Origin: a virus
Taxonomy: Duplodnaviria; Heunggongvirae; Uroviricota; Caudoviricetes
Direction: 5' to 3' (one strand)
Length of the DNA stretch: 61,023 nt
IMG/VR virus record: IMGVR_UViG_2740892440_000003
This document shows, one piece after another, positions 6,797 through 42,144 of the stretch (positions are counted from its first letter, which is position 1; each line of letters opens with the position of its first letter). The notes beneath the pieces are model-generated. The model saw only the letters and a program-made list of their open reading frames with translations. It searched no databases and was not told where the DNA came from. The translations under genes were made by a program, and so were the position numbers.

Positions 6797-6813
6797 AGAA
6801 TTATTAGAGCAAT
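6797..6813 (-). promoter_or_regulatory. C1 operator (Op99-type), 14/17 match to consensus
   Basis: Reverse-complement match to the P1 C1 operator consensus ATTGCTCTAATAAATTT; lies between loxP and coi/c1. Confidence 0.5.
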
Positions 6814-18230: not shown

Positions 18231-20858
18231 ATGACTCATCAAACACACACCATTGCTGAATCCAATAACTTTATCGTCCTTGATAAGTACATCAAAGCTG
18301 AGCCAACAGGCGACAGCTACCAGAGCGAATCGGACCTGGAACGTGAACTGATTCAAGACCTGCGGAATCAGGGCTATGAATTTATATCCGTAAAATCACA
18401 GTCGGCGATGCTGGCCAATGTTCGGGAACAGCTTCAGAACCTCAATGGTGTGGTGTTTAATGACAGCGAGTGGCGGCGTTTCACGGAGCAGTATCTGGAT
18501 AACCCGAGCGATGGCATTCTGGATAAGACCCGTAAAATCCATATCGACTATATTTGCGACTTTATTTTTGATGACGAGCGTCTTGAGAACATCTATTTGA
18601 TAGATAAAAAGAATCTCATGCGCAATAAGGTGCAGATTATCCAGCAGTTTGAACAGACGGGTTCTCATGCTAACCGTTATGACGTCACGATCCTGGTTAA
18701 TGGTTTACCGCTGGTGCAAATCGAACTAAAAAAACGCGGGGTGGCGATTCGTGAGGCTTTCAACCAGATACATCGTTACAGTAAAGAGAGTTTTAACAGC
18801 GAAAATTCCCTGTTTAAGTATCTGCAACTGTTTGTCATTTCTAACGGCACCGATACCCGTTATTTTGCCAACACGACAAAGCGCGATAAAAACAGTTTTG
18901 ACTTCACCATGAATTGGGCGAAATCAGACAACACGCTGATTAAAGACCTCAAAGACTTTACCGCTACCTTTTTCCAGAAACATACTCTGCTGAATGTTCT
19001 GGTGAACTACAGCGTTTTTGACAGTAGTCAGACGCTACTGGTGATGCGACCGTACCAGATTGCCGCCACCGAGCGCATTCTGTGGAAAATTAAGAGTTCC
19101 TTTACAGCGAAGAACTGGTCAAAACCGGAAAGCGGTGGGTATATCTGGCACACTACCGGTTCTGGTAAAACCCTCACCAGCTTTAAAGCCGCGCGTCTGG
19201 CAACAGAGCTGGACTTTATTGATAAAGTCTTCTTTGTGGTCGACAGGAAAGACCTCGATTACCAGACCATGAAGGAATATCAGCGTTTTTCGCCAGACAG
19301 CGTCAACGGCTCGGAAAATACCGCAGGCCTTAAACGAAATCTGGATAAGGACGATAACAAAATTATCGTCACTACTATTCAGAAACTCAATAACCTGATG
19401 AAAGCAGAAAGCGACCTGCCTGTATATAATCAGCAAGTGGTGTTTATATTTGATGAATGCCACCGCAGCCAGTTTGGAGAAGCGCAGAAAAACCTGAAGA
19501 AGAAATTCAAACGCTATTATCAGTTTGGTTTTACCGGCACACCTATTTTCCCGGAAAACGCCTTAGGCTCAGAAACGACCGCCAGCGTATTTGGTCGTGA
19601 ATTGCATTCGTATGTAATTACCGATGCGATTCGTGATGAAAAAGTGCTCAAATTCAAGGTGGACTACAACGATGTGCGGCCACAGTTTAAGTCTTTAGAG
19701 ACAGAAACTGACGAGAAAAAACTAAGTGCGGCTGAAAATCAGCAGGCGTTTCTTCATCCCATGCGTATACAGGAAATTACGCAATATATTCTGAATAACT
19801 TCCGCCAGAAGACGCACCGTACTTTCCCTGGCGCAAAAGGTTTTAATGCTATGTTGGCAGTGAGCAGCGTGGATGCTGCAAAAGCCTATTACGCGGCGTT
19901 TAAACGGTTACAAGAGGAAGCCGTTAATAAATCTGCAACTTATAAACCGCTGCGTGTTGCGACAATCTTCTCCTTTGCCGCTAATGAAGAACAAAATGCC
20001 ATTGGTGAAATTTCCGATGAAACTTTTGATACCAGCGCAATGGACAGCAGTGCTAAAGAGTTTCTTGACGCTGCAATTCGTGAGTATAACAGCTATTTTA
20101 AAACTAACTTCAGCACCGACGGTAACGGTTTTCAGAACTACTATCGCGATTTAGCCCAACGGGTTAAAAATCAGGATATCGATCTGTTAATTGTCGTGGG
20201 GATGTTTTTAACTGGCTTCGATGCTCCAACATTGAACACGCTATTCGTCGATAAAAACCTGCGTTTTCACGGCTTGATGCAGGCATTTTCCCGCACCAAC
20301 CGTATTTATGATGCAACTAAAACCTTCGGTAATATCGTCACTTTCCGGGATCTGGAACGCTCAACTATTGATGCCATAACGCTGTTTGGTGACAAAAACA
20401 CCAAAAATGTGGTTTTAGAAAAGAGTTATGCAGAGTATATGGAAGGCTTTACTGATGCTGCCACTGGTGAAGCTAAGCGCGGCTTTATGGCAGTAGTTTC
20501 AGAACTGGAACAACGGTTCCCTGACCCTGCCAGTATTGAAAGTGAAAAAGAGAAGAAAGACTTCGTTAAACTGTTTGGTGAATACCTGCGTGCCGAGAAC
20601 ATCCTGCAAAACTATGATGAATTTGCCACGCTGAAAGCCCTGCAACAAATCGATCTTAGCGATCCTGTTGCGGTAGAAAAATTCAAAGAAGAACATTATG
20701 TGGATGATGAAAAGTTCGCTGAATTGCAAACGATTCGTCTCCCTGCTGAACGCAAGATTCAGGATTATCGTTCTGCCTATAACGATATTCGTGACTGGCA
20801 GCGCCGCGAGAAAGAAGCTGAGAAAAAAGAGAAATCAACACTGACTGGGACGATGTAG
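18231..20858 (+). CDS. hsdR: type I R-M restriction subunit HsdR, N-terminal 875 aa (frame broken at the A6 run 20824-20829)
   Basis: Superfamily 2 helicase motifs (TGSGKT Walker A, DECH box); ends prematurely. One extra A in the run at 20824-20829 would join it to the 20873-21346 frame, giving about 1030 aa. Confidence 0.8.
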
Positions 20859-20872
20859 TTTTTGAGGTCGAT

Positions 20873-21346
20873 TTGCTGAAGTCTCAGGAAATAAACCTGG
20901 ATTATATCCTTGGACTGATTTTCGAACACAACAGACAAAATAAAGGCAAGGGCGAAATGATCGAAGAGGTCAAACGCTTAATTCGTTCAAGCCTGGGAAA
21001 CCGGGCGAAAGAGGGCCTGGTGGTCGATTTTATTCAGCAAACGAACCTGGATGATTTACCAGACAAAGCCAGTATCATTGAGGCATTCTTTACGTTTGCT
21101 CAACGCGAACAGCAACGTGAAGCAGAAGCATTGATAAAAGAAGAAAACCTCAATGAAGAAGCAGCAAAACGCTATATTCGCACGTCTTTAAAACGCGAAT
21201 ACGCCACCGAAAATGGCACAGAATTAAACGAAACATTACCAAAACTTAGTCCGTTGAATCCGCAATATAAAACGAAAAAACAGGCAGTTTTCCAGAAAAT
21301 CGTCTCGTTTATTGAGAAGTTTAAAGGCGTAGGCGGAAAAATATAG
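20873..21346 (+). CDS. hsdR: HsdR C-terminal domain fragment (downstream frame)
   Basis: The same frame reads ...[20 protein letters not shown]... upstream of the annotated start, continuous with HsdR if the A-run is 7 nt long. Confidence 0.6.
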
Positions 21347-21425
21347 CCCAATTCGTGTTTTTCTTGCGGGTTCTTAATTAAACCCGCAAGAGACCGTGGG
21401 GTTCCAAATGGCTAATATACTCCCC

Positions 21426-21512
21426 TTACCCATGCGCAACGATGCCGCCAAAAATGATAGAGAACAGCCAGAAATAGATCGCGGCCATAATGATTTTGAA
21501 TGCCGTGTTCAT
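21426..21512 (-). CDS. small hydrophobic peptide (28 aa, single predicted transmembrane helix)
   Basis: MNTAFKIIMAAIYFWLFSIIFGGIVAHG, with an AGGAG RBS 8 nt upstream of the ATG; lies in the hsdR/ppp-block intergenic region. Confidence 0.35.
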   Translation of the reverse strand: MNTAFKIIMAAIYFWLFSIIFGGIVAHG

Positions 21513-21540
21513 ATTTTCAGCTCCTGTGATTGATTGGATA

Positions 21541-21572
21541 CATGCCGCGCCTTGCGGCATGTTTTTATTTTC
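21541..21572 (+). terminator. rho-independent terminator (plus strand)
   Basis: 8-bp GC-rich stem catgccgc/gcggcatg with a 5-nt loop, followed by tttttattttc. Confidence 0.6.
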
Positions 21573-21594
21573 ACTTTCTCTGTTTTAAAAATCA

Positions 21595-21611
21595 ATATTT
21601 ATTAGAGCAAT
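21595..21611 (-). promoter_or_regulatory. C1 operator (16/17)
   Basis: atatttattagagcaat, overlapping the stop of the 21611-22117 gene and upstream of the small peptide ORF. Confidence 0.6.
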
Positions 21612-22117
21612 TATTGTTGATGAAGAAGCGCATTTTCATACTCCCTGACCATTAACGTAAGTACGCCGTGACTCCTGAAAACACGCGCTACTTCAATCTT
21701 ATCTTCCAGCGCGAACGCAATTTTACTTAGACCAATTTTCTTCAGGAGATCAATCTTTGCTGGACCGTCATTTCTGTCATCGGTGGCAGGACGCATAGAT
21801 AGCAAAGGCTCAGCCCCGTTTGTTACGTGCTTCCGCAGCCAGGCTCGTGTTTTATCCCTTGCGATCTCACAGCGCCCGGTTACAAACCAGACCGTGTAAA
21901 CGTTAAATAACTGGCGCACAATATCAATAACTGGAGTTATGGGAGTATCAGTGTCACAGGCGAGATTAAACTCGTTCCAGTTCTTTGTTAATGCACCTTT
22001 ACCTGGTGGCGGAAGCAAATGCAGTCTGTCTTCCGTTGCCTCCGATATTGTTCCATCAATATCGACTATGACGATATACGGACGTTCCTGGTGTGCGTGT
22101 TTATTGAAAATACTCAA
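21611..22117 (-). CDS. HAD-superfamily phosphatase-like protein
   Basis: 168 aa; N-terminal DIDGT (the DxDGT nucleophile motif of HAD phosphatases). Confidence 0.5.
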   Translation of the reverse strand: MSIFNKHAHQERPYIVIVDIDGTISEATEDRLHLLPPPGKGALTKNWNEFNLACDTDTPITPVIDIVRQLFNVYTVWFVTGRCEIARDKTRAWLRKHVTNGAEPLLSMRPATDDRNDGPAKIDLLKKIGLSKIAFALEDKIEVARVFRSHGVLTLMVREYENALLHQQ

Positions 22118-22190
22118 ATGCCCTCCTCATTGGACGAAAAAAATGCTGGTGGGACGCACTCCACCAGCATTAAAAGTGACACTGTAACTA

Positions 22191-36918: not shown

Positions 36919-37583
36919 ACTTGCCGGGTACGTCTCCGGCGAGGGCTTCCACCTCCGTATGCTTTTCGGCGCACCGCGCCCTGGCTGCAATTCGGTAACA
37001 GGGGATGCATAACCCTGGCTTCCAGCGTGATTAGCGCTTTCAGCATGACGGGATATACCCGTAAATTCGTGGAACTGTACCCAAAGTGCTGTTAAGCACC
37101 GCTGTTACGCTGAAAAGAAGACGCAACAGGAAAGGACGCTGACCAACAGATGGCCCCTTCTCGTTCATCTGGTTAATCACACCAGCGCCCTTACCTGTTG
37201 TGCCTCCCCGTTCCCTAATACACAGACGGGGACACTCTGCGGTCGATTTTTTGACGGGGGACGACTCATACCCCGTGGCGTCTGGCTTCTTAGGCCGCTA
37301 CCATCATCAGATCATCGTTTGCATTTACTTTAATGGTCAGTTTCTAAACCGCCGCAAAGTCGCTAACCATGACGAAAACCCTGAAAAAAACGCCCACCCG
37401 AAGATGGGCAAACTGGAAGCTCGTAACGCACTTCGGCGTTGCCACTTAGGCGCATGGTCAACCTGGCAACTCGGTGGTTTGTCTGGGAGGACTATGCCCA
37501 GCCATGCTTACCGCCGCGCCTGTCGCGGCTAACAGCTAAATCGCTCTATAAATCACGATTCATTGAGGCGATATTACACTAAT

Positions 37584-37600
37584 AAATTTATTAGAGCAAT
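37584..37600 (-). promoter_or_regulatory. C1 operator, perfect 17/17 match
   Basis: aaatttattagagcaat is the exact reverse complement of ATTGCTCTAATAAATTT; overlaps the dmt stop codon, upstream of the tRNA cluster. Confidence 0.8.
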
Positions 37601-41779: not shown

Positions 41780-42128
41780 GTTGTAACCCTTGAATATCAA
41801 CCACAGAAAGCTCGTCTTTGTAGAAAAATGCCAGGTTGTGGCACCCCCTCGTTTGAGCGTATGAGCTGGGACCAATTTCGTTCTTCCAGACAAATGGCTT
41901 CAAATCCGTACGGCGAAGCATAAAAACGCGATTTGTTCCGCTCTGATTCCCAATGAGGCAAAAGCCTTCTTTCACCTTGATAGCCTGCAAGTTGTCGAGT
42001 TCACCGCTGGTTACACGGCTATCGAACTCTTTGCGACTTATTAGCTCCATCTGCATCTGACGACTCCAAACAAATGCCCATTGAAGGGCGATGGCTGAAT
42101 GGTACCGAAAACACGACACAAAAAACAA
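41772..42128 (-). CDS. hypothetical protein upstream of hrdC
   Basis: ORF overlapping the hrdC start; the true start may be the internal Met ([11 protein letters not shown]). Confidence 0.35.
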
Positions 42129-42144
42129 TATTTATTAGAGCAAT
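42128..42144 (-). promoter_or_regulatory. C1 operator (16/17)
   Basis: atatttattagagcaat in the divergent intergenic region between the hrdC operon and the PAAR gene. Confidence 0.6.

Follow-up and report, generated by a model that had tools for sequence, protein, structure and literature searches.

We analysed a 61,023-nucleotide (nt) stretch of viral DNA, the IMG/VR record IMGVR_UViG_2740892440_000003 (the window), which to judge from its sequence is a P1-like phage-plasmid (Punavirus), and focused on a 28-codon minus-strand open reading frame (ORF) together with the C1 operator, promoter and stem-loop upstream of it. The comparisons indicate that this ORF is a real, conserved protein-coding gene for a membrane peptide with one helix. 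We consider it likely, at a probability of about 0.72, that the region is the head of a C1-repressed early unit, the Op88/OpmgT-PpmgT unit of phage P1, in which a messenger RNA (mRNA) capped by a hairpin would encode an early single-pass inner-membrane peptide that acts via its conserved helix. The elements of this module, in the direction of the gene, are as follows.

21595-21611, minus strand (21611-21595 as read): C1 operator, the equivalent of P1 Op88/OpmgT, ATTGCTCTAATAAATAT, a 16/17 match to ATTGCTCTAATAAATTT
21567-21595, minus strand: predicted sigma-70 promoter, the P1pmgT equivalent, with -35 TTGATT at 21595-21590, a 17-nt spacer and -10 GAAAAT at 21572-21567
21610-21605 and 21587-21582, minus strand: -35 TTGCTC and -10 TAAAAC of P2pmgT, the alternative predicted promoter of the P1 record
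21540-21562, minus strand (21562-21540 as read): stem-loop, 9 base pairs (bp) with loop AAGGC in the sense RNA, 10 bp on the plus strand
21513-21539, minus strand: conserved leader CCAATCAATCACAGGAGCTGAAAAT, which contains AGGAG at 21525-21521
21426-21512, minus strand: 28-codon gene for the single-helix membrane peptide MNTAFKIIMAAIYFWLFSIIFGGIVAHG, ATG at 21512, stop TAA at 21428-21426

Conservation and coding potential of the 28-codon ORF

We compared 84 P1-type loci, comprising 80 IMG/VR contigs fetched via Pap, reference phages and the window. The ORF was exactly 87 nt long, with neither stop nor indel, in 82 of them; the other two were recombinants that break inside it. At position 21454 the window and locus L079 encode I20 (ATT), and T20 (ACT) was found in 80 of the 82 intact loci. 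The variant types within the P1-type numbered 8 for synonymous changes (18.3 sites) and 10 for nonsynonymous changes (62.7 sites), a ratio of nonsynonymous to synonymous proportions (pN/pS) of 0.37 (binomial P = 0.033). Minor-allele counts were 52 for synonymous and 18 for nonsynonymous variants, the common variants being synonymous and the nonsynonymous ones rare. Between lineages, pN was lower than pS in every pair (Nei-Gojobori, shared 25 codons), with synonymous sites mostly saturated (P1 versus L092: pS 0.83, pN 0.23), and close pairs showed synonymous to nonsynonymous changes of 2:0, 4:0 and 5:2. A chance ORF was rejected on this conservation and on pN/pS.

The mean Kyte-Doolittle hydropathy of the peptide was 2.37 over residues 7-25, within a hydrophobic helix of approximately residues 3-25 that is conserved in the relatives; the single membrane helix predicted in an initial annotation of this DNA is supported, as is a genuine small gene. 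Among the 476 ATG-started ORFs of 25-60 amino acids (aa) in the window, four had a strong Shine-Dalgarno sequence 5-12 nt upstream, and only the 28-aa ORF among these four contained a 19-residue stretch with a mean hydropathy of at least 2.0 (2.37). AlphaFold2, run with the family alignment on the 48-aa L092-type homologue P0022 rather than on the window peptide, predicted a helix from residue 3, with pLDDT values of 81-89 over residues 1-20. In the family alignment M1, K6, A11 and W15 were invariant, and position 13 was Y or F.

Spread of the module in P1-like elements

The module (operator, TTGATT-17-xAxAAT promoter, stem-loop, GGAG site and membrane-helix ORF) was kept in five diverged sublineages: the P1-type, two Salmonella/IMG-VR types, Cronobacter phage JK004 and a Logan type. 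The four sublineages other than the P1-type carried peptide homologues of 46-65 aa. A first search of a large protein database returned near-identical P1-type peptides only, and a contig scan with PmgS as the query gave only 2 near-identical loci. A tblastn search with Pap led to JK004, whose Pap is approximately 70% identical; downstream of its pap lie, in order, an identical operator, TTGTTT-17-AATAAT, a different GC-rich stem-loop, CCAATCAATCACCGGAGCC and a 53-aa ORF beginning MHLIFKLAITAFYAWMLTVV. Three further sublineages were found using the JK004 peptide and the leader motif. Salmonella plasmids without pap carried a 46-aa form (389 contigs), IMG/VR L092 a 48-aa form and Logan L102 a 65-aa form, while Logan L099-L101 carried a 53-aa form behind an operator that varies at one base.

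An exhaustive HMMER profile search of 1.84 billion representative proteins gave 14 hits; those with E-values of 1e-7 or below were all family members, and no relatives were found outside P1-like elements. The peptide had no significant match in Pfam, NCBIfam, PHROGs or PADLOC. The gene is under-annotated, is mis-started where it has been annotated, and founds a small orphan family.

Outside the P1-type, the stop codon of the peptide gene overlaps the start of the next gene (ATGA or TGATG); in the P1-type, pmgT/upf86.8 begins 9 nt downstream. The next gene outside the P1-type encodes a conserved protein of approximately 105 aa with weak matches to TrmB/MarR-type winged-helix proteins (L086 3745-4059; L087 2647-2918; L092 1956-2273; L099 3159-3473), followed by a conserved 161-aa protein; neither occurs in P1, P7 or the window. 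A conserved downstream partner was rejected, PmgT, Upf86.8 and the 105-aa TrmB/MarR-like protein being unrelated to one another.

Operator and promoter upstream of the ORF

Positions 21000-22200 of the window were 94-98% identical to P1, P7, SJ46, RCS47 and others, and two phages, vB_EcoM-673R5 and phi456, matched over the full length. Over 21422-22200 the DNA identity to P1 and P7 was 96-98%, and operator, promoter hexamers, stem-loop, ribosome-binding site and ORF were all present in both. The P1 GenBank record annotates the homologous DNA with a monovalent C1-controlled operator, OpmgT (formerly Op88), the predicted sigma-70 promoters P1pmgT and P2pmgT, and then pmgT-pmgU-pmgV; the P7 record names the operator Op(hea). 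Operator and promoter are therefore already known from P1 and are not new. The small ORF is annotated in neither the P1 nor the P7 reference record, and literature searches on Op88, pmgT and P1 transcription start sites returned nothing on the ORF or its transcript.

The initial annotation had placed a 16/17 C1 operator about 85 bp upstream of the ORF. It is present, with its near edge 82 nt from the ATG, and its first base is the final base of the pap stop codon. We take ATTGCTCTAATAAATTT to be the C1 operator consensus and used the same pattern to search the window, where 9 matches with at most 2 mismatches were obtained against 0.02 expected. The operator sequence was the same in JK004, the Salmonella plasmids, L092 and L102, with a one-base change in L099 and L101. 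The window allele ends in AAATAT and the P1 allele in AAATCT. The other eight matches in the window lie at 6797, 6880, 27361, 37573, 37584, 42128, 57298 and 58960; two of them overlap and diverge at 37573-37600, and the copy at 42128-42144 is identical to the Op88-type site.

The promoter TTGATT-17-GAAAAT shares 1 nt with the operator, and the TTGCTC hexamer of P2pmgT lies within it. All five lineages have a TT(G)xTT-17-xAxAAT pattern between -54 and -59 relative to the ATG. The predicted promoter scored 8/12 and so fell below the 9/12 threshold of our promoter scan. Because the operator is the annotated Op88/OpmgT of P1 and overlaps both predicted promoters, control of the 28-codon ORF by C1 is very likely, in line with the earlier suggestion that its expression is repressed in the prophage.

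Leader sequence and choice of the start codon

The AGGAG reported ahead of the ORF was confirmed and is separated from the ATG by an 8-nt spacer. The leader, CAATCA(ATCA)YNGGAGC, was near-invariant between lineages. In minimum-free-energy folds of L087, L086, L092, L099 and L101 the ribosome-binding site was unpaired; in the fold of the window itself, three weak pairs (21538-21536 with 21524-21522) overlap AGGAG.

A 44-aa form of the peptide has been annotated at the same locus and in the same frame in SJ46 (gp098, 'membrane protein'), phi456 (Orf75) and JL22 (hypothetical protein). It adds the following segment.

21513-21560, minus strand: 16-codon upstream extension, non-coding, overlapping the stem-loop and the ribosome-binding site

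The extension was broken in 16 of the 84 P1-type loci, by stops in 12 and by frameshifts in 4, while the 28-aa form was intact in 82, so on sequence comparison the form behind AGGAG is the conserved ORF and the 44-aa annotations start 16 codons too early. The 44-aa start, which begins within the stem-loop, was rejected on these stops and frameshifts.

The stem-loop between promoter and leader

A stem-loop was found at the same position in all lineages with differing sequences. Its arms are as follows.

P1-type: ACATGCCGC/GCGGCATGT
Salmonella-type and L092: (A)AGGCCAC/GTGGCCT(T)
JK004: GGCCGC/GCGGCC
L099: UUGGCGGUCGC/GUGACCGCCGA
L101: UUGGCAGUCAC/GUGACUGCCAA

The stem starts 5 nt past the -10 in the window and 5-8 nt past the predicted -10 across all lineages. 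Since this promoter is conserved in position, the stem-loop would lie at the 5' end of the mRNA. Covariation was counted on the five non-P1 sequences only, MAFFT being unable to align the P1-type hairpin, with its 5-nt loop, to the hairpins with 9-nt loops. Compensatory changes on both sides were present in 6 of the 11 stem pairs, and 87% of stem cells could pair, compared with 16-45% when the partner arm was slid. Within the P1-type, the variants 21554 C>T (9 loci) and 21547 C>T (1 locus) give G.U in the sense RNA and A.C in plus-strand RNA, and the L099 stem likewise keeps a G.U pair only in the sense (minus-strand) RNA.

The initial annotation had read the same sequence as a strong intrinsic terminator on the plus strand. 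Our terminator scan recovered the site.

21540-21572, plus strand: terminator-like site, stem 21540-21562 followed by TTTTTATTTT at 21563-21572, with 10 pairs and 9 T in the next 10 nt

Its plus-strand fold had an energy of -16.3 kcal/mol (z = -4.9). The terminator-like site stands, but its T-run is restricted to the P1-type and its stem co-varies as a structure of the sense RNA. By our count, the 10 nt after the stem on the plus strand contained 3-5 T in the other four lineages, so that a GC-rich stem followed by a U-run occurred in the P1-type alone and the terminator features were not kept in the relatives. In the P1-type, the T-run is simply the opposite strand of GAAAATAAAAA, the A-rich -10 and discriminator from which the sense transcript is predicted to start. 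An attenuator on the sense strand was rejected, the minus strand having no U-run after the stem in any lineage.

We therefore doubt that the stem-loop is primarily a plus-strand terminator that insulates pap and pmgS from convergent transcription, whether from hsdR or, in P1, from lxr or antisense transcripts. The canonical terminator form in all P1-type loci and the rare variant 21541 G>A (1 locus), which pairs only in plus-strand RNA, agree with such a role. However, JK004, the Salmonella type, L092/L102 and L099/L101 have no T-run, the neighbouring genes of P1 run in the same direction as the ORF, and ten loci carry variants that fit pairing in the sense RNA only, as does the L099 G.U pair. 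By analogy with the 5' hairpin of ompA, which protects its transcript from decay that depends on the 5' end, the conserved role is most likely that of a 5'-terminal stem-loop that stabilises the sense mRNA. In the P1-type the stem-loop probably also terminates convergent transcripts, particularly beside hsdR.

A cassette junction directly behind the ORF

On the minus strand, pmgS and pap precede the operator and the 28-codon ORF, behind which a convergent type I hsdR ends.

22191-23453, minus strand (23453-22191 as read): pmgS
21611-22117, minus strand (22117-21611 as read): pap
21421/21422: cassette junction; homology with P1, P7 and SJ46 ends at 21422, 4 nt past the stop codon
20873-21346, plus strand: hsdR 3' fragment (5' part at 18231-20858), convergent and not part of the module

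The junction falls within GGGTAAGGGG, the Shine-Dalgarno-like sequence that precedes pmgT/upf86.8 in P1, P7 and SJ46. We surveyed the 85 P1-type loci with enough downstream sequence. The ORF was followed by pmgT/upf86.8-type genes, 9 nt away, in 62 loci and by an hsd cassette in 20 (plus the window); one locus had another sequence downstream, and two break inside the ORF. The P1/P7 unit continues into pmgT-pmgU-pmgV or into upf86.8 and later genes; in the window, a convergent type I hsd cassette stands in their place. By this sampling hsdR is a secondary cassette insertion, present in about one fifth of P1-type loci and outside the module. Because the cassette replaced everything downstream of the stop codon, the peptide gene of the window is an orphan first cistron, with a transcript that would enter a frameshifted hsdR in antisense orientation. 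Variability between pmgT and humD has been described for P1-like phage-plasmids (PMC9603915), and from the comparisons above the ORF marks the fixed left edge of this hypervariable region.

The hsdR gene (18231-21346) is split by a 1-nt deletion after 20839 (AACCACT to AAC-ACT), called against the intact 1038-aa hsdR of phi456 and of plasmid pCTXM15_005784; the split gene is either a pseudogene or the result of a sequencing error. Just past the hsdR stop, a perfect hairpin of 10-11 bp (CTTGCGGGTT-cttaatt-AAACCCGCAAG, 21365-21392) forms part of the hsd cassette, and neither strand shows a T-run there. In many IncF plasmids, hsdS-hsdR leads into a stretch equivalent to window positions 21380-21505, in which the last 80 nt of the small ORF are retained; IS1A cuts this remnant ahead of the start codon, as in L103 (NZ_CP028576.1, 4001-4126). 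Such remnants made up approximately one third of 869 matching plasmids in an evenly spaced sample, and according to the P1 record R124/3 and EcoDXXI have the same homology downstream of hsdR. The IncF remnants are the footprint of a type I hsd cassette that moved together with the P1 junction.

On the other side of the module, pmgS and pap are separated by a strong terminator-like site (22142-22171, minus strand; a stem of 11 pairs, then TTTTT). In the Salmonella-type and L092 lineages pap is missing and the operator directly follows pmgS, so pap looks, from its distribution, like a separately acquired unit.

Proposed role of the module and alternative explanations

In the reading that we favour, C1 bound at 21595-21611 would cover the -35 regions in the lysogen and keep the unit off. 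Upon infection or induction, sigma-70 RNA polymerase would start approximately 7 nt past the -10, so that the mRNA begins with the stem-loop, which most likely, like the ompA hairpin, protects it against decay that depends on the 5' end. The largely unpaired AGGAG would then drive translation, and the peptide, a single helix, would enter the inner membrane and act there early in lytic growth. In most relatives, translation would pass on to the next cistron via the overlapping stop and start codons or across the 9-nt gap. Our best guess, given the conservation of K6, A11, W15 and Y/F13, is that the peptide modulates or perturbs a host membrane function by helix-helix contacts. In the window, the stem-loop and the A/T-rich promoter region probably also stop read-through from hsdR, which would be a by-product rather than a toxin-antitoxin design.

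Several observations weigh against this interpretation. The family is tiny and without remote homologues, so that homology gives no function, and our literature searches found no transcript, start-site, translation or phenotype data. The selection signal within the P1-type is marginal (P = 0.033). The P1-type peptide is without the hydrophilic tail of 20-30 residues that is conserved elsewhere (SFKPDANM[KR]AS..SYDCDQQ in JK004 and L099-L101), and could be a functionally dead remnant. For the stem-loop, the 21541 G>A variant points to the plus strand, and a start from P2pmgT would be predicted to place about 12 unpaired nt before the stem. Finally, a CRISPRi study in P1 scored pap, pmgT, pmgU and pmgV as non-essential, with the small ORF not among its targets (PMC10695390), so the unit would be accessory at best.

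The main rival is that the ORF is a relic or leader: the 28 codons of the P1-type would be the N-terminus of an ancestral protein of 46-53 aa, kept only because promoter, leader and passing ribosomes serve the next cistron by translational coupling, and functionless in the window. We regard this as improbable. Consistent with it are the missing tail, the cassette junction at the stop codon, the Shine-Dalgarno sequence of pmgT/upf86.8, which overlaps the end of the ORF, and the two loci that tolerate a break inside it. Read-through alleles in which TAA has become TAY, and which fuse the helix to unrelated tails, also fit. However, the amino acids of the helix are kept across saturated synonymous divergence, which a pure coupling device would not need, and the P1-type data (82/82 ORFs intact, minor-allele counts of 52 versus 18, pN/pS of 0.37) tell against decay. 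Moreover, the 20 sampled hsd loci and the window have no downstream partner left for coupling, yet their ORF is intact.

Such fusions were seen in the P1-type alleles P0009-P0013, P0016 and P0019, with TAA changed to TAY or a shifted junction; the helix is joined to unrelated C-terminal tails, once to a DUF551 fragment.

The initial annotation had likened the locus to type I toxin-antitoxin systems. On such a view the peptide would be a membrane toxin, and a plus-strand RNA ending at the terminator at 21540-21572, whether a dedicated small RNA or read-through from hsdR, would act as antisense to its mRNA. The convergent geometry behind this idea is correct: a plus-strand transcript from hsdR would cross the ORF antisense before it reached the stem-loop. 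The ORF is also small and hydrophobic with a strong ribosome-binding site, the P1-type terminator lies just beyond its start, so that a plus-strand RNA would cover both the ribosome-binding site and the ATG, and a structured 5' untranslated region is typical of type I toxin mRNAs. However, no plus-strand promoter-like site was found within or near the ORF in the P1-type, and no antisense promoter was conserved across the lineages. The sole recurrent antisense hexamer pair (8/12), seen in other lineages and absent in the P1-type, is forced by the conserved sense sequence around the ATG. Four of the five lineages have no T-run, and the covariation of the stem fits a structure of the sense RNA. 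No stable pairing occludes the ribosome-binding site, which is unpaired in the five other folds and touched by three weak pairs in that of the window. In every lineage the gene is repressor-controlled and opens an operon, its stop overlapping the next start outside the P1-type, and hsdR is a secondary insertion that is frameshifted in the window. No toxin or antitoxin match was obtained in Pfam, NCBIfam, PHROGs, PADLOC or Rfam; the Rfam search gave nothing above noise, its only match being a 20-bit GcvB-like one on the terminator hairpin. With neither an antisense promoter nor a stably occluded ribosome-binding site nor a family match, we rejected the toxin-antitoxin explanation as highly improbable.

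Under the favoured reading, we tentatively suggest that the peptide founds an undescribed family of early-lytic membrane effectors confined to P1-like phage-plasmids, which might be made within minutes of C1 inactivation from an mRNA stabilised by its hairpin, and of which the helix-only 28-aa form might be active; the odds are against this more specific proposal. If true, the effector could depolarise the inner membrane, block superinfection or a membrane-bound defence effector, or modulate a host membrane protein. P1 has long served as a model phage and as a tool of genetics, resistance genes are commonly carried by P1-like phage-plasmids, and the P1 reference annotation is without the conserved first cistron of a C1-controlled unit. 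Adding the gene with its correct 28-codon start would provide a candidate small membrane protein at the switch from lysogeny to lysis. No general concept is altered by the finding, and a type I toxin-antitoxin locus is not supported.

Comparison with known systems

The module of the window is the same element as P1 Op88/OpmgT (Op(hea) in P7); the P1 and P7 records leave the ORF unannotated, and the downstream genes differ. It resembles the ompA-type 5' stem-loops of E. coli in that a stable hairpin would lie 0-2 nt from the predicted 5' end, with an unstructured ribosome-binding site after it; compensatory changes conserve the stem between lineages. Likeness to the type I systems hok/sok, ldr/rdl, ibs/sib, tisB/istR-1, shoB/ohsC, zor/orz and dinQ/agrB extends to a small hydrophobic single-helix peptide of less than 60 aa and a structured 5' leader. 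Unlike these systems, the locus has neither an antisense RNA gene nor a sequestered ribosome-binding site; it is controlled by a repressor as the first cistron of an operon, and matches no family. MgrB, MgtS, AcrZ, SafA and KdpF are small regulatory membrane proteins of enterobacteria. The peptide resembles them in size (28-53 aa), in its one membrane helix and in a few conserved polar or aromatic positions, a pattern that fits helix-helix recognition. It has no sequence similarity to them, and the window peptide, in contrast, is encoded by a phage and is predicted to be expressed only when C1 is removed.

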